Of a DNA stretch of 64,000 bases, positions 5,609 through 46,475 are shown piece by piece. The stretch's first letter is position 1. Every line of letters begins with the position of its first letter. The position numbers were made by a program, and so were the translations under genes. The stretch is taken from the NCBI RefSeq assembly GCF_058153355.1, contig NZ_CM177019.1, one strand, 5' to 3'. Below the pieces are notes generated by a model. That model had not been told where the DNA came from. It ran no database searches and saw only the letters and a program-made list of their open reading frames with translations.

Positions 5609-5621
5609 CGGCATAACGCCG
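5609..5621. repeat. 13-bp target-site duplication, left copy (cggcataacgccg)
   Basis: identical 13-mer flanks both IS4 ends (second copy 7048..7060). Confidence 0.85.
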
Positions 5622-7047
5622 TAATGCCAGTCAGTTAAGCAACTGACTGGCTCTTTTTCGGGGCTGTGGGGTATTTCCAGGGCCTCTCCTTTACCACTCT
5701 CGGGAAGGCCCTTTCCCTTCTTGTCGGTAATTTCACAAGTTGTCCCATACTTGCAAGATCGCGCATCAGCTCCGGTATACGTCCCGGTGAAGCGCCCTGC
5801 AATGTCATCAGCATTCTCATCACCATTCCGCATGATTCTGAGAAACTCAGTTGATTCGGCCAGTAACCTTTCAGATGTTCCGCCATTTTAATCATCTGAT
5901 ATCTCACCAGATTATAAGCCAGTAAGACACCCCACAGCTCTTGCTCCACAAGCTCCGGCTTTTTACTTCTCAGCGTCAGCCTGCTCAGTTGCATCGTCTG
6001 TTTTATCTCCCTGTATCCCAGTTCGATTTCCCAGCGATGACTGTACAGATCCGCCATTTCTCCTCCGGGGAAGCGCATGGCGTCCGTCATCGACGTCAGC
6101 AGATGGCAGACTTTTCCTTTGCGCGTCACGGTCAGCAGGCGGGCTGTCACTTCATTTCCCAGTCCCGGCCACTTTTTTCGTGCCTGCGGGCTGGTTTTCA
6201 GCTTCACCAGATGATCGCCTTTACCCAGTTTTCTGATCTCTTCATATTGCGCTCCCTTTCTGAGAGGTATCATCCAGTGGCGGTGTTCTCCCGCCAGGCT
6301 CCAGGCATTTAACAGTCCCAGTGAGTAATAACCTTTATCCATTAACGTCAGAGTGTTATCGCCGGTTTGTTCTATAAGTTGCTCAGCAAGCTCATTTTCG
6401 CTGTTCTTCATCGTGCCGAAGGCTGCAGCCGTCAGCAGATGGCTGGTCAGTTCCATCTGGCAGACCATTTTGACCTGCGGGTAGAGCGCCGGGTTCCCGG
6501 CATGTGTCTGGCGGGGGAAGGCTGCATCGTTCTCTGGTGTATCCGGTGTGCGCCAGAACACACCATCGATGGCCAGCAGGGTCAGGCCGCACCAGTGCGG
6601 ATGCGGCGTGGCGTTATGCCAGAGCTGCGCTGTTTTCGTGAACACGCGGCGGACAGCCTCACTTCCCAGGCGCTGGCGGGCCTGAATAACGGCACTGGGG
6701 GCAACGAAGGGGCGATTGCCCGGCAGCATGATGTCCAGGCGATTCACAATCTGGTGAAGAGGTTCTTTACGCTCAAGCGCCATGCCAACAATACACCAGA
6801 CCATCATTTCGAGGGGAAGACGGCGCTTGCGTAGCGTTACAGTACCTGATTCGGCAAGGCAACGAGAGATGAGTTCGGGGTCGAGGTAATCCCCCAGAGA
6901 AGTCAGTGGGTTACGCAGAGAATCGTAACGGGATACCAGATCAAGAGCCTGTCCAATGTGCATAAAAAAATCCGGAAACAAGTGAGCGTTTCCGGATTCT
7001 TACACAGCCACTGGATCGGTCAACTGATCCTTAACTGATCGGCATTA
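5622..7047 (-). mobile_element. insertion sequence IS4, complete 1426-bp copy
   Basis: 1426 bp matches recalled IS4 length; imperfect terminal inverted repeats (taatgccag... / ...ggcatta); single 442-aa transposase; flanked by 13-bp direct repeat. Confidence 0.9.
5635..6963 (-). CDS. insG: IS4 transposase InsG (442 aa from Met [10 protein letters not shown])
   Basis: ORF 5635..6981; sequence recognised as the IS4-family DDE transposase. Confidence 0.9.
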
Positions 7048-7060
7048 CGGCATAACGCCG
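7048..7060. repeat. 13-bp target-site duplication, right copy (cggcataacgccg)
   Basis: identical to 5609..5621. Confidence 0.85.
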
Positions 7061-15253: not shown

Positions 15254-15637
<384 letters not shown>

Positions 15638-15695: not shown

Positions 15696-16151
15696 TTAGT
15701 ACTGATGAGCGGTCGCGTTGTTACCAAAGCCAACCTGAGTGACGTTAACGCTGGAGTTAGATGCAGTCTGGTCAACAGCAGCACCGTTACCGCCACCGAA
15801 CTGTTTAACAGTCATAGTAGAATCTTTACCATTCCACTGATCAAGAGTGGCGCTGTTACCGAAGCCACGCTGAGTCAGATCGATTGAGCTGTCATCTGAG
15901 CCCTGACCAACATCTGCACCGTTACCACCGCCATGCTGGGTAATAGTCAAGTCAGAGTTACGGGCATCAGTTTGCAGAGCAAGTGCAGAGTTACCGCCAC
16001 CGTACTGGTAAATGTTCAGCTCTGAATTTGGGCCGCTATTATTACCGCCACCACCGTGGTTACCGCCGCCGCCGTACTGAGGAACAACACCTGCCAGAGC
16101 GCTACCAGAGAATACGATTGCTGCAATTGCTGCTACTTTTAAAAGTTTCAT
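15696..16151 (-). CDS. csgA: major curlin subunit CsgA (151 aa)
   Basis: ORF 15696..16151; five imperfect Gln/Asn/Gly-rich curlin repeats. Confidence 0.95.
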   Translation of the reverse strand: MKLLKVAAIAAIVFSGSALAGVVPQYGGGGNHGGGGNNSGPNSELNIYQYGGGNSALALQTDARNSDLTITQHGGGNGADVGQGSDDSSIDLTQRGFGNSATLDQWNGKDSTMTVKQFGGGNGAAVDQTASNSSVNVTQVGFGNNATAHQY

Positions 16152-16191: not shown

Positions 16192-16647
16192 TTAACGTTG
16201 TGTCACGCGAATAGCCATTTGCGACTGTCTCTGCACTACAATTGCCGTTTTTTGAGTACCATACTGTGTAATATTTGCTTTATTACCAGAACCTTTCTGG
16301 ATAATCATCGCAGTATTACCATAAGCACCTTGCGAAATACTGGCATCGTTGGCATTGCCCGCCTGATCAATATATGCAAGGTTATAATCTCCTGTCTGGT
16401 CAATCTTTGCCCGGTTGCTACTACCTTCTTGCGCAACAACCGCCAAAAGTTTTGAGCCTCCCTGCCGTAACTGAGCACTATTATTAGTCCCAGCTTGACC
16501 AATTATGGCTGCCTGATTAAATGAAGACTTACTCAATTCATTTACCGCGAAGTTATATTCTGAATTAGCTAAATCATAACCTGCTGCGGCTGCAATCCCA
16601 GGCGCACCCAGTATTGTTAACATCATAAATAACAATTTGTTTTTCAT
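16192..16647 (-). CDS. csgB: minor curlin nucleator CsgB (151 aa)
   Basis: ORF 16192..16674; start MKNKLLFMMLTILG; curlin repeats. Confidence 0.9.
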   Translation of the reverse strand: MKNKLLFMMLTILGAPGIAAAAGYDLANSEYNFAVNELSKSSFNQAAIIGQAGTNNSAQLRQGGSKLLAVVAQEGSSNRAKIDQTGDYNLAYIDQAGNANDASISQGAYGNTAMIIQKGSGNKANITQYGTQKTAIVVQRQSQMAIRVTQR

Positions 16648-17401
16648 GTTGTCACCCTGGACCTGGTCGTACATTTAAGAAATTAAATCATTTCAACTTG
16701 GTTGTTAACGCAACCTGTATTTTGTTAACGCCGCGTTACGATGGAAAGTATGTCTGCGGAAATATTTTTAATAACTCACCCGCGCGTTGTATTTTTCTTT
16801 TTTTGTTCATACCAAAGTATTAAAACCCACGTAAATACGCTGTTATCTACGCAAAAAAAATATTTTGTTTTCTTTCAAATTTCGGTTTTCCGCAATCAAA
16901 AATCACCAGACAGTCATTCTTCTTGCCCGTCGCTGATTGCTGCGATATGTATTGCGCACAAGCCGTGACAAACCTCGTCTTTTTGCAGTAAAAAATTGTC
17001 CACGGAGGTGTGGAGAAAAAACAAGAACGTTTTACATGACGAAAGGACTACACCGAAATATTTTTATATGCATTATTAGCAAGTTAGCACCATTTGTATG
17101 ATTTTTTAAAATTGTGCAAGAAAAACCAAATGTACAACTTTTCTATCATTTCTAAACTTAATAAAACCTTCAGATTAACATTTTAATATAACGAGTTACA
17201 TTTAGTTACATGTTTAACACTTGATTTAAGATTTGTAATGGCTAGATTGAAATCAGATGTAATCCATTAGTTTTATATTTTACCCATTTAGGGCTGATTT
17301 ATTACTACACACAGCAGTGCAACATCTGTCAGTACTTCTGGTGCTTCTATTTTAGAGGCAGCTGTCAGGTGTGCGATCAATAAAAAAAGCGGGGTTTCAT
17401 C
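16648..17401. promoter_or_regulatory. csgBAC / csgDEFG divergent intergenic control region (about 750 bp, AT-rich)
   Basis: long AT-rich spacer between divergent csgB and csgD; position corresponds to the well-studied curli regulatory region; individual binding sites not mapped here. Confidence 0.75.
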
Positions 17402-18052
<651 letters not shown>

Positions 18053-18056
18053 AGCC

Positions 18057-18446
18057 ATGAAACGTTATTTACGCTGGATTGTGGCGGCAGAATTCCTGTT
18101 CGCCGCAGGGAATCTTCACGCCGTTGAGGTAGAAGTCCCGGGCTTGTTAACTGACCATACTGTTTCATCTATTGGCCATGATTTTTACCGAGCCTTTAGT
18201 GATAAATGGGAAAGTGACTATACGGGTAACTTAACGATTAATGAAAGGCCCAGTGCACGATGGGGAAGTTGGATCACAATAACGGTCAATCAGGACGTTA
18301 TTTTCCAGACTTTTTTATTCCCGTTGAAAAGAGACTTCGAAAAAACTGTCGTCTTTGCACTGATTCAAACTGAAGAAGCACTAAATCGTCGCCAGATAAA
18401 TCAGGCGTTATTGAGTACGGGCGATTTGGCGCATGATGAATTCTAA
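18057..18446 (+). CDS. csgE: curli secretion specificity factor CsgE (129 aa)
   Basis: ORF 18057..18446; synteny. Confidence 0.9.
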
Positions 18447-18470: not shown

Positions 18471-18887
18471 ATGCGTGTCAAACATGCAGTAGTTCTACTC
18501 ATGCTTATTTCGCCTTTAAGTTGGGCTGGAACCATGACTTTCCAGTTCCGTAATCCAAACTTTGGTGGTAACCCAAATAACGGTGCTTTTTTATTAAATA
18601 GCGCCCAGGCACAAAACTCTTATAAAGATCCGAGCTATAACGATGACTTTGGTATTGAAACGCCATCAGCGTTAGATAACTTTACCCAGGCCATCCAGTC
18701 ACAAATTTTAGGTGGGCTACTGTCGAATATTAATACCGGTAAACCGGGCCGCATGGTGACCAACGATTATATTGTCGATATCGCTAACCGCGATGGTCAA
18801 TTGCAGTTGAATGTGACGGATCGCAAAACCGGACAAACCTCGACCATCCAGGTTTCGGGTTTACAAAATAACTCAACCGATTTTTAA
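18471..18887 (+). CDS. csgF: curli assembly protein CsgF (138 aa)
   Basis: ORF 18471..18887; signal peptide; synteny. Confidence 0.9.
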
Positions 18888-18913: not shown

Positions 18914-19747
18914 ATGCAGCGCTTATTTCTTTTGGTTGCCGTCATGTTACTGAGCGGATGCTTAACCGCCCCGCCTAAAGAAGCCGCCAGACCGACATTA
19001 ATGCCTCGTGCTCAGAGCTACAAAGATTTGACCCATCTGCCAGCGCCGACGGGTAAGATCTTTGTTTCGGTATACAACATTCAGGACGAAACCGGGCAAT
19101 TTAAACCCTACCCGGCAAGTAACTTCTCCACTGCTGTTCCGCAAAGCGCCACGGCAATGCTGGTCACGGCATTGAAAGATTCTCGCTGGTTTATACCGCT
19201 GGAGCGCCAGGGCTTACAAAACCTGCTTAACGAGCGCAAGATTATTCGTGCGGCACAAGAAAACGGTACGGTTGCCATTAATAACCGAATCCCGCTGCAG
19301 TCTTTAACGGCGGCAAATATCATGGTTGAAGGTTCAATTATCGGTTATGAAAGCAACGTCAAATCGGGCGGGGTTGGGGCAAGATATTTTGGGATCGGTG
19401 CCGACACGCAATACCAGCTTGATCAGATTGCCGTGAACCTGCGCGTCGTCAATGTGAGTACCGGCGAGATCCTCTCCTCGGTGAACACCAGTAAGACGAT
19501 ACTTTCCTATGAAGTTCAGGCCGGGGTTTTCCGCTTTATTGACTACCAGCGCTTGCTGGAAGGGGAAGTGGGTTACACCTCGAACGAACCCGTTATGCTG
19601 TGCCTGATGTCGGCTATCGAAACAGGGGTCATTTTCCTGATTAATGATGGTATTGACCGTGGTCTGTGGGATTTGCAGAACAAAGCAGAACGGCAGAACG
19701 ACATTCTGGTGAAATACCGCCATATGTCGGTTCCACCGGAATCCTGA
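18914..19747 (+). CDS. csgG: curli secretion channel lipoprotein CsgG (277 aa)
   Basis: ORF 18914..19747; lipobox LLSGC; synteny. Confidence 0.9.
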   Translation: MQRLFLLVAVMLLSGCLTAPPKEAARPTLMPRAQSYKDLTHLPAPTGKIFVSVYNIQDETGQFKPYPASNFSTAVPQSATAMLVTALKDSRWFIPLERQGLQNLLNERKIIRAAQENGTVAINNRIPLQSLTAANIMVEGSIIGYESNVKSGGVGARYFGIGADTQYQLDQIAVNLRVVNVSTGEILSSVNTSKTILSYEVQAGVFRFIDYQRLLEGEVGYTSNEPVMLCLMSAIETGVIFLINDGIDRGLWDLQNKAERQNDILVKYRHMSVPPES

Positions 19748-22946: not shown

Positions 22947-23034
22947 GGTGAGGTGTCCGAGTGGCTGAAGGAGCACGCCTGGAAAGTGTGTATACGGCAA
23001 CGTATCGGGGGTTCGAATCCCCCCCTCACCGCCA
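22947..23034 (+). tRNA. serX: tRNA-Ser (anticodon GGA), 88 nt with long variable arm
   Basis: ggtgaggtgtccgagtggctgaaggagcacgcctGGAaa...gggggttcgaatcccccctcaccgcca; cloverleaf by eye, CCA-encoded 3' end. Confidence 0.9.
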
Positions 23035-23480
23035 TCTTTAAAGAAGAGCTCGTACGAAAGTACGGGCTTTTTTTTTCGTATATTGCACACACCGGGGGGA
23101 TGAGAAGCCCCGACAGGGGTTCGACAACTGGCGACAGCCAGTTGGACAGACCGTGAACGCAGTGAGCGGGCTGCCCGCAGGGCGAGCGAAGCGAGTCAAT
23201 CCCCCCCTCACCGCCATCTTTAAAGAAGAGCTCGTACGAAGGTACGGGCTTTTTTTTCGTATATTGCACACACCGGGGGATGAAAAGCCCCGACCGGGGT
23301 TCGACAACTGGCGACAGCCAGTTGGACAGACCGTGAACGCAGTGAGCGGGCTGCCCGCAGGGCGAGCGAAGCGAGTCAATCCCCCCCTCACCGCCATCTT
23401 TAAAGAAGAGCTCGTACGAAGGTACGGGCTTTTTTTTCGTATATTGCACACACCGGGGATGAAAAGCCCTGACCGGGGTA
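23016..23480 (+). repeat. tandem direct repeat array, about 2.6 copies of a ~180-bp unit, each unit beginning with a 19-nt copy of the serX 3' end and a hairpin+T-run
   Basis: aatccccccctcaccgcca recurs at 23016, 23198, 23378; following ~160 bp nearly identical between copies, with internal 8-bp stem caactggc/gccagttg. Confidence 0.85.
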
Positions 23481-40671: not shown

Positions 40672-42000
40672 ATGGCAATGTTCGGTTTTCCTCACTGGCA
40701 GTTAAAATCGACCTCTACAGAGAGCGGCGTGGTCGCGCCGGATGAACGATTGCCGTTTGCTCAGACGGCAATAATGGGCGTTCAACACGCGGTGGCGATG
40801 TTTGGCGCGACGGTGTTAATGCCGATTCTGATGGGGCTGGATCCCAACCTTTCCATTTTAATGTCGGGGATCGGCACGTTACTGTTTTTCTTTATTACCG
40901 GCGGGCGCGTCCCCAGTTATCTCGGTTCCAGCGCGGCTTTTGTCGGCGTGGTGATCGCCGCGACGGGCTTTAATGGTCAGGGAATTAATCCGAATATCAG
41001 CATCGCGCTGGGCGGGATTATCGCCTGTGGGCTGGTTTATACCGTCATTGGCCTGGTGGTGATGAAAATCGGTACGCGCTGGATTGAACGACTAATGCCG
41101 CCGGTTGTGACGGGTGCGGTGGTGATGGCGATTGGCCTGAACTTAGCGCCTATCGCAGTGAAAAGTGTATCGGCTTCGGCCTTTGATAGTTGGATGGCGG
41201 TAATGACGGTGCTGTGTATTGGGCTGGTGGCGGTGTTTACCCGTGGCATGATCCAGCGATTATTGATTCTCGTAGGATTAATTGTCGCCTGTCTGCTGTA
41301 TGGCGTGATGACCAACGTTTTAGGGCTGGGAAAAGCCGTCGATTTTACTCTCGTCAGCCATGCTACCTGGTTCGGTCTGCCACATTTTTCCACTCCTGCT
41401 TTTAATGGTCAGGCAATGATGCTGATTGCGCCCGTGGCGGTGATTCTGGTGGCGGAAAACTTAGGTCATCTCAAGGCGGTCGCCGGGATGACCGGACGCA
41501 ATATGGATCCATATATGGGGCGGGCATTCGTGGGCGATGGGCTGGCAACGATGCTTTCCGGCTCTGTCGGCGGTAGCGGCGTAACCACCTATGCTGAAAA
41601 TATCGGTGTGATGGCTGTGACAAAAGTCTACTCGACGCTGGTGTTTGTTGCTGCTGCCGTCATCGCCTTGCTGTTGGGCTTTTCGCCGAAATTTGGCGCG
41701 CTGATCCATACCATTCCTGCACCGGTGATTGGTGGTGCTTCAATTGTTGTGTTCGGGCTGATTGCCGTCGCAGGCGCACGGATCTGGGTACAAAACCGTG
41801 TCGATTTAAGCCAGAACGGTAATTTGATTATGGTCGCAGTAACCTTAGTGCTGGGCGCGGGTGATTTTGCTCTCACGCTGGGCGGTTTTACGTTGGGAGG
41901 GATCGGTACAGCAACCTTTGGCGCGATTTTACTCAATGCGTTGTTGAGCAGAAGGTTGGTTGACGTTCCTCCGCCAGAAGTTGTTCATCAGGAACCATAA
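40672..42000 (+). CDS. rutG: pyrimidine permease RutG (NCS2 family, 442 aa)
   Basis: ORF 40645..42000; polytopic NCS2-like transporter. Confidence 0.85.
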   Translation: MAMFGFPHWQLKSTSTESGVVAPDERLPFAQTAIMGVQHAVAMFGATVLMPILMGLDPNLSILMSGIGTLLFFFITGGRVPSYLGSSAAFVGVVIAATGFNGQGINPNISIALGGIIACGLVYTVIGLVVMKIGTRWIERLMPPVVTGAVVMAIGLNLAPIAVKSVSASAFDSWMAVMTVLCIGLVAVFTRGMIQRLLILVGLIVACLLYGVMTNVLGLGKAVDFTLVSHATWFGLPHFSTPAFNGQAMMLIAPVAVILVAENLGHLKAVAGMTGRNMDPYMGRAFVGDGLATMLSGSVGGSGVTTYAENIGVMAVTKVYSTLVFVAAAVIALLLGFSPKFGALIHTIPAPVIGGASIVVFGLIAVAGARIWVQNRVDLSQNGNLIMVAVTLVLGAGDFALTLGGFTLGGIGTATFGAILLNALLSRRLVDVPPPEVVHQEP

Positions 42001-42054
42001 ACAGAAAACCGCCGGGATTACCGGCGGTGCAGATTGTTGACAACGTGCGCATTG

Positions 42055-42165
42055 TTCATGCCGGATGCGGCGTGAACGCCTTATCCGGCCTATAAAACAG
42101 TGCAAATTCAATATATTGCAATCTTCTGGTAGGCCTGATAAGCATCGCGCATCAGGCAAGCTTAC
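42055..42165. repeat. REP/BIME element between rutG and ymdF
   Basis: gccggatgcggcgtgaacgccttatccggcctac plus inverted gtaggcctgataagc... Confidence 0.7.
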
Positions 42166-42257
42166 ATTTGTCATCAGTATCAACCGCCGGGGTAACCGGC
42201 GGTGATGGTTTTTTGACGAGCTACAGACAAAAATGCATGCGTCATTGATTAGCCCGG

Positions 42258-45221: not shown

Positions 45222-46475
45222 TTAGATGGCATAACGATTTAAATAGTCCAGTTGCGCTTTCATTTCCTTATGGTTTAACTGGTATGACTGAGCAAAAAGT
45301 TCAGTAGGGAGGTAAACGTCATAATGATTGCCAGTATTCATTAAATAACCATACTCAAGATCTTCATCCGTTGAAAAGGATTCACTTCCCAAGGAGATTG
45401 ATCCCACATTACAGGCAACAATAAACAATGAACAAATGCTATCTGAAAGCACAGCAAGGAAATTCTTCACTGCTTTAACCTTTTCCGGAGAGTCGGTATT
45501 TAAAACAAGCGAACCCTTGTTATCATTAAATATAAACTCGGGTAAATGCAATATGCATCTTTCGTCATTCAAGCAACTACCAATGAATTCTTTTTTAAAC
45601 TTAATAAAATTCGACGCTAAAGAATTACCCATATCCTGAATTTGGTTGTCAGAATGCAGATCAACGCCAAATAATGTCTTAATATCTTCCCTGAGATTAA
45701 AGAATGCTGCATCAACAAAAGACTCAATCACTTGTTTATCAACAATTTTAATAAATTCGTCGTATACTTCTTTTTGCGTCTTTTGACTACCAAGCGCCCA
45801 TGAATAATCAACGTGTTTTATAACCAGTATGGCTCTTAACAGACAATATCCATCGCCATCTACAGGCGCGTATTTTAATTTATGTGCTTGATTAATTTCA
45901 CTCTGAATAAAAGATATACCAGACAAATCAATACCAGTAACTGAATCATATATTCCCGGCGTATTTATCCATTTTGGCTGGACACTCGTAATTTCATCAT
46001 CATCAAAGCAATACTCAGAAAAAACATCATTACACTCATTTAAGATATCAACATATGCTATAAATTTATACCAACAGCTACTTTTAAAGCCTGCAATAGC
46101 CTGTGAAAACATACCCGGCAAGGATATATTAACAAGCTCTCTTTCTTGAAAATATTGTATAGTATAGGTAATGCCTCCTGAATCCCCTGAATAAGTGTTT
46201 GTATCATGAGTACGTAATGTTTTCATAAATGAAGATAAATCATTATCATTTTGCATTTCCTCTAATTCTGTTTCTAGTGATTCACACACCAGGCATGAAA
46301 TATTTTCTTCTTTCCGCATGATTTCATTGTACAACCGCATAAAACACTCTAGTTTTTGTTCAAAAAGCGTGATTGAACATTTTTGATTTTCTTCGCGCCT
46401 GGTTTTTATATCGGCCCAGGCTGTTTTCAAATAATTATTAGCACTGCAACTTACTCCATGTATATTACTACCCAT
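45222..46475 (-). CDS. yccE: uncharacterised protein YccE (417 aa)
   Basis: ORF 45222..46475; position between agp and cbpA as in K-12; function unknown. Confidence 0.7.
   Translation of the reverse strand: MGSNIHGVSCSANNYLKTAWADIKTRREENQKCSITLFEQKLECFMRLYNEIMRKEENISCLVCESLETELEEMQNDNDLSSFMKTLRTHDTNTYSGDSGGITYTIQYFQERELVNISLPGMFSQAIAGFKSSCWYKFIAYVDILNECNDVFSEYCFDDDEITSVQPKWINTPGIYDSVTGIDLSGISFIQSEINQAHKLKYAPVDGDGYCLLRAILVIKHVDYSWALGSQKTQKEVYDEFIKIVDKQVIESFVDAAFFNLREDIKTLFGVDLHSDNQIQDMGNSLASNFIKFKKEFIGSCLNDERCILHLPEFIFNDNKGSLVLNTDSPEKVKAVKNFLAVLSDSICSLFIVACNVGSISLGSESFSTDEDLEYGYLMNTGNHYDVYLPTELFAQSYQLNHKEMKAQLDYLNRYAI

Follow-up and report, generated by a model that had tools for sequence, protein, structure and literature searches.

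An intact, standard curli control region between csgB and csgD in a 64-kb Escherichia coli sequence

The divergent curli operons in the sequence analysed here, a stretch of 64,000 nucleotides from contig NZ_CM177019.1 (assembly GCF_058153355.1) referred to below as the window, are separated by a long AT-rich gap, and the question arises what this DNA contains and if its length is exceptional. Reading the window and its listing of open reading frames puts the minus-strand start codon of csgB at 16645-16647 and the ATG of csgD at 17402, which sets the bounds of the spacer at 16648-17401. These 754 bp agree with the roughly 750 bp of non-coding DNA between divergent curli operons described in the first-pass annotation. 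The genes are arranged in the order clsC-ymdB-ymdA-csgC-csgA-csgB on one side and csgD-csgE-csgF-csgG-ycdZ-ycdY-ycdX on the other, matching the annotation of the K-12 strain C600 and of the nearest complete genome. With a probability of roughly 97%, the region 16648-17401 is taken to be the canonical E. coli curli control region, the upstream DNA common to the divergent operons csgBAC and csgDEFG, and no evidence contradicting this identification was found.

Whether the spacer is unusually long, as had been claimed, depends on the standard applied. None of the other gaps separating the roughly 50 annotated features in the 47 kb collinear with the nearest genome is as long, the next two measuring 589 and 556 bp. 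Intergenic regions of K-12 have a mean length of 112 bp and a median of 67 bp, and the K-12 csg spacer, also 754 bp long, ranks fifth in size among the divergent and thirteenth among all intergenic regions of that genome (PMC5745457). Measured against the genome the description therefore holds, but for this locus 754 bp is the normal length.

All seven csg genes had been called intact, and full-length reading frames were indeed found for seven out of seven, each of K-12 length, with clean start and stop codons and with zero to two amino-acid changes relative to K-12. On the minus strand, csgC (15305-15637, 110 aa) carries T3A and V24M, csgA for the major curli subunit (15696-16151, 151 aa) N110D and E112T, and csgB for the curli nucleator (16192-16647, 151 aa) S98N. 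On the plus strand, csgD (17402-18052, 216 aa) specifies P19 and A110, where K-12 has S19 and S110, and retains D59; this CsgD sequence is the allele WP_000481500.1, which is annotated in strains R32_14_1F and SK1144. The proteins encoded by csgE (18057-18446), csgF (18471-18887) and csgG (18914-19747), also on the plus strand, are identical to those of K-12. The further suggestion of a curli-proficient strain would go beyond these data, since curli production presupposes that structural genes, regulatory genes and promoter are intact but is not proved by it. Curli expression also requires rpoS, mlrA, ompR, ihfA, hfq and the c-di-GMP module (PMC12713406).

Alignment with the K-12 csg region, the check proposed in the first-pass annotation, ran from end to end and allowed the known elements to be mapped. 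Both spacers are 754 bp long and 98.0% identical, with 15 differences consisting of 13 substitutions and two 1-bp indels. The indels compensate each other, an extra A in an A-run at 16853 and a missing T in a T-run at 17060. Large indels relative to K-12 had been named as the observation that would speak against the reading; since the alignment contains only these two homopolymer indels, that objection does not arise. Not one of the 15 differences falls within the last 227 bp before the csgD ATG, against an expectation of about 4.5 at the rate found over the spacer as a whole (Poisson p~0.011). Consequently, the OmpR site, the -35 and -10 hexamers, the start site and the entire leader are identical to those of K-12.

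The spacer is widespread in the species. Of the 5,426 complete E. coli genomes searched by megablast, 5,371 gave a match, usually with 97-98% identity and at best with 99.3%; about 40 genomes showed a partial match only and 55 none. Natural disruption does occur: in NZ_AP023286.1, from the pig isolate E. coli 2018-18.25PC, an IS1 element is located within the csgB-csgD spacer. For positions 1-25000 of the window, the best complete E. coli genome was that of R32_14_1F, isolated from a goat, with 99.0% identity, and the others listed reached 97.4-97.8%. With 99.0% as the best identity, none of the 5,426 complete RefSeq genomes is thus closely related to the source strain.

For the csgD promoter, the start site was placed at about 17254 on the basis of the published leader of 148 nt (PMC4152358), and positions below are given relative to it. 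The MlrA palindrome, AAAATTGTGCA(12N)TGTACAACTTT, lies upstream of the OmpR site at 17108-17141 (-146 to -113). It has two mismatches to the consensus AAAATTGTACA(12N)TGTACAATTTT (PMC9662190), and both arms are as in K-12; the sole difference there is a G instead of T at 17120, within the 12-nt spacer of the palindrome. The right arm is conserved to at least 90% in 59 aligned sequences. The activating site for OmpR contains a perfect direct repeat, GTTACATTTAGTTACA, at 17195-17210 on the plus strand and is identical to K-12; the middle of the 20-bp site falls at about -49.5, and the equivalent Salmonella site D1 is found at -51 (PMC13304067). Across genera, the most conserved block of the spacer is the csgD P1 core promoter at 17220-17248 on the plus strand. 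CTTGAT at 17220-17225 and TAGATT at 17243-17248 are taken to be its -35 and -10 hexamers. When footprints known from K-12 are transferred to the window, H-NS (-201 to +28) would cover 17053-17282, RcsB (-31 to +53) 17223-17307, and RcdA (-308 to -192) 16946-17062.

Between the MlrA and OmpR sites, a direct repeat at 17156-17172 on the plus strand resembles a PmrA/BasR box and is a putative BasR site. In K-12 it reads CTTAAT-N5-CTTAAG, and by an A to C exchange at 17171 the second half-site in the window becomes CTTCAG. BasR binding to the csgD promoter has been reported (PMC12388358, PMC12419081), and deletion of basR left csgBA expression unaffected in a recent study (PMC12713406). The exchange at 17171 is one of seven of the 15 differences from K-12 that fall inside the footprinted csgD fragment from -335 to +67, at -80, -83, -134, -167, -174, -194 and -303. 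At -83, it was absent from all 5,136 complete E. coli genomes that matched the surrounding 64-mer (5,426 searched). The best 64-mer matches were all one base off (98.4% identity), and in SK1144, the one checked, the mismatch is position 17171. With seven differences in the promoter fragment, one of them private, quantitative regulation of csgD could differ from that in K-12. A functional role for 17171C itself was considered and given little weight, because this column is variable across genera and the basR deletion was without effect on csgBA (PMC12713406). The private base may also be a sequencing error.

Consensus scans for IHF, CpxR, RstA, BasR, CRP and Cra yielded only matches of low specificity, and a scan for terminators gave two weak terminator-like matches, compared with 0.7 expected from shuffled sequences. 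In a generic promoter scan, promoter-like sites were no commoner in the spacer than in shuffles; the scan is uninformative, since it missed the real csgD promoter. The description of the region as a dense regulatory hub is in line with the literature, according to which at least 12 proteins and five sRNAs bind to the csg spacer and the density of mapped sites near one start site is the highest, with 26 of 32 sites within 200 bp (PMC5745457).

On the csgB side, a block conserved across genera extends from 16708 to 16825 on the minus strand in the conservation profile of the 59 sequences; it covers the csgBA promoter region and sequence upstream of it. It contains CATACT in GACATACTT at 16747-16752 on the minus strand, a candidate -10 element of csgBA predicted from the consensus, with two mismatches to KCTATACTT; the csgB start would then be expected near 16740. 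In the alignment, an invariant AGTATG block is found at this place. Adjoining this conserved element on the minus strand, a predicted CsgD box, CGGGTGAGTTA, occupies 16772-16782, and the csgB ATG follows 125-135 nt downstream of it. The box is an exact match to the consensus CGGGKGAKNKA. Allowing at most one mismatch, the box was detected in 50 of 59 sequences.

The csgD leader, 17254-17401 on the plus strand, had been noted for its length. It comprises the published 148 nt, is identical to K-12, and in K-12 is folded into two stem-loops, SL1 and SL2 (PMC4152358). It is the target of the sRNAs OmrA/B, McaS, RprA, GcvB and RydC. SL1 is situated at about 17319-17374; folding of the leader returned this hairpin at 17322-17372, and its apical stem shows compensatory changes across 59 aligned leaders.

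A different explanation for the length of the spacer would be an unannotated gene, either for a small protein or for an independent small RNA such as ES056. Some observations point in this direction. Mechanical ORFs of 30-75 codons are present in the spacer, the Rfam family ES056 (RF02752) is matched over its full model (1-92) at 17255-17346 on the plus strand with 119.7 bits, the gathering score being 43, and a 92-nt ES056 transcript, whose start is 1 nt away from that of csgD, has been detected by RNA-seq (PMC4676190, Table 3). However, ES056 represents the leading 92 nt of the csgD 5' UTR and adds no length, and no further Rfam family was significant in the spacer. The ORFs fare no better. 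Those of 75 and 54 codons change with the 1-bp indels that distinguish the window from K-12, no ORF is conserved between the two spacers, and the sequence in the middle of the spacer cannot be aligned across most genera. On these grounds, the hidden-gene explanation was rejected as very improbable.

The base composition of the control region was confirmed to be AT-rich, with 34.7% G+C compared to 50.4% in the whole window, where just 1.8% of 754-bp segments are as low. The lowest G+C content of any 754-bp segment, 32.5% and thus below that of the csg spacer, is found at about 45520-46270, inside an annotated hypothetical gene located between agp and cbpA. For the K-12 csg spacer, 65.5% AT and "strong inherent curvature" have been described (PMC5745457). 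Of the phased A/T tracts that had been proposed here, the tracts themselves are present, 42 of the A(n)T(m) type measuring 4 nt or more, but their helical phasing is weak. Compared with shuffles preserving dinucleotides, AA/TT periodicity at 10.6 bp gave p~0.08 for the whole spacer and an uncorrected p~0.03 for the csgB-proximal half, and no significant periodicity of tract centres was found in the spacer (p 0.24-0.92). In a wedge-model calculation, the mean curvature of the spacer ranked in the top 7% of 754-bp segments, with one strong local peak near 16983, the fifth-ranked in the 64 kb. The curvature result is compatible with local bending, and global phasing of A/T tracts is weakly supported. 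The idea that a peak of curvature is conserved halfway between the two promoters was also considered and discarded: the peak at about 16983 is present in only about 15 of 56 species, a second group having its peak near 16821, and is confined to Escherichia and a few other lineages.

For a comparison across genera, species-representative genomes were scanned with a degenerate peptide pattern for the CsgD helix-turn-helix. Among the 120 loci obtained, 76 contained both csgD and csgB, and 58 species from at least 17 genera of Enterobacteriaceae with clean ATG-to-ATG bounds formed the set for length analysis. Spacer length varied from 586 to 802 bp with a median of 759.5 bp, and in 84% of the species it was about 740-800 bp; the G+C content ranged from 32 to 39%. 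That the extra length is a non-functional inserted or repetitive remnant, such as a fragment of an IS, REP or MITE, is even less credible than a hidden gene, for although an IS can land in this spacer, as IS1 did in NZ_AP023286.1, and an IS4 is found elsewhere in the same window, no notable inverted or tandem repeats were detected in 16600-17450 and no IS, REP or mobile-element remnants in the spacer, its length is that of K-12, and a lineage-specific insertion would not give such conservation of length across genera. A two-copy match of 12 nt, GAAATATTTTTA, at 16759 and 17055 is probably due to chance, since the second copy in K-12 has an extra T.

Repeats and insertions were encountered in other parts of the window. 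A 1,426-bp insertion at 5622-7047, between yceK and mdoH and absent from the nearest complete genome, has terminal inverted repeats, and on either side of it stands a copy of the 13-bp direct repeat CGGCATAACGCCG, at 5609-5621 and 7048-7060. Its ORF of 448 aa gave a hit to NF033592, a model for IS4-family transposases (E = 9e-91), and the insertion looks like an intact IS4. Downstream of a tRNA-Ser gene, at 23016-23480, self-similar copies occur about 180 bp apart, with offset BLAST matches to R32_14_1F. At about 41645-42180, a fragment of about 385 bp from the 3' end of rutG is duplicated; the nearest genome annotates an incomplete "solute carrier family 23" pseudogene.

Within the curli control region, the stretches best conserved among the 59 sequences are the csgB promoter block, the MlrA arm, the block from the OmpR site to the start site, and the leader. 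Between these lies a fast-evolving centre of about 260 bp (16830-17090), which is poorly conserved; the distance between its flanking anchors is constant. Comparing Escherichia with most genera, the centre was not alignable above shuffled controls (z -1.7 to 2.6), and with Salmonella, Citrobacter and Enterobacter it was weakly alignable (z 3.8-7). A small conserved island at 16963-16997, CGTGACA followed by a T-run, coincides with the strongest predicted curvature peak. Across genera its motif consists of CGTGACA (or GTCAC) and a T-run about 9 nt later, often TTTTCTTAAG in Enterobacter-like genera. In this centre, selection seems to act on length and not on sequence.

The distances between elements are rigid. 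The MlrA arm and the OmpR box are 64 bp apart in 54 of 56 sequences, the OmpR box and the -10 element 47 bp in 57 of 59, and the CsgD box and the MlrA arm 357-369 bp in 47 species. In this side analysis, for which the two leader segments served as the sole, internal control, the inner segment enclosed by the CsgD box and MlrA arm anchors averaged about 353 bp with an SD of 2.9 bp, compared with 8.1 bp on 122 bp on the csgB leader side and 6.1 bp on 155 bp on the csgD leader side. The transcribed leaders are better conserved in sequence yet more variable in length than the inner segment. Gap counts from pairwise alignments were discounted as evidence for compensating indels, because alignments of equal-length, near-random AT-rich sequences create paired gaps by construction, and the length distribution alone was used. 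A tentative, and on balance rather doubtful, interpretation is that selection acts on how far apart the two curli promoters lie, with which the compensating 1-bp indels between the window and K-12 would also fit. This would suggest a nucleoprotein structure of fixed geometry coupling csgD and csgBA expression. Candidates for such a structure are a loop organised by H-NS and IHF, or supercoiling coupling of the divergent promoters. No report on conserved spacing of the csg spacer was found in the literature searched, but it may be known elsewhere. A short class of spacers, 586-589 bp, was observed in Enterobacter sp. Bisph1, Kosakonia pseudosacchari and K. quasisacchari. In these three, no MlrA right arm was detectable and the CsgD box is only about 70 bp from the csgB ATG; this class may have a different regulatory layout.

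The way in which the control region would operate has been established for K-12 (PMC5745457, PMC12713406, PMC4152358, PMC12388358, PMC3535384, PMC9662190) and is transferred here by sequence identity. RNA polymerase with sigma-S or sigma-70 would start csgD transcription at about 17254. The promoter would be activated by OmpR at about -50, by MlrA at -146 to -113 and by IHF, and repressed by H-NS (-201 to +28), CpxR and RcsB (-31 to +53); RcdA would also bind, at -308 to -192. The 148-nt leader would then fold into SL1 and SL2, to which the Hfq-dependent sRNAs OmrA/B, McaS, RprA, GcvB and RydC would bind, lowering CsgD synthesis. CsgD in turn would activate the csgBA promoter opposite via a CsgD box beside its -35 region. 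In our proposal, the centre of about 260 bp may act as an AT-rich architectural spacer binding nucleoid proteins.

Among known systems, the csgBAC-csgDEFG locus of K-12 is the closest, being alike in flanking genes, length, OmpR box, -35 and -10 hexamers, start site, leader, MlrA palindrome and predicted CsgD box, and differing in the 15 positions described above and in S19 and S110 of CsgD. In Salmonella enterica, csgD (agfD) likewise lies in a divergent arrangement, with a spacer of 760 bp in subsp. diarizonae and the same distances of 64 bp from MlrA to OmpR and 47 bp from OmpR to the -10 element, and H-NS, IHF and OmpR bind to this likewise AT-rich DNA (PMC13304067). It differs in the spacer centre, which is weakly alignable with that of the window (z = 3.8 compared to shuffles), and H-NS has been reported as an activator in Salmonella but as a repressor in E. 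coli (PMC12713406). The nanC-fimB region of 1,455 bp is likewise a long non-coding divergent spacer with multiple mapped transcription factor sites (PMC5745457, Table S6), but its genes and regulators are different.

The region is an intact, standard curli control region. Its size and dense regulation have already been published; the finding is correct and already known. The csgD control region decides whether curli and cellulose biofilms are built in E. coli and Salmonella, which matters for persistence outside the host and on food and devices. An intact canonical copy provides a correct annotation and a baseline rather than new biology. If it is upheld against genome-wide controls, the conserved length of a spacer with divergent sequence would offer a route to promoter communication and to bimodal curli expression.
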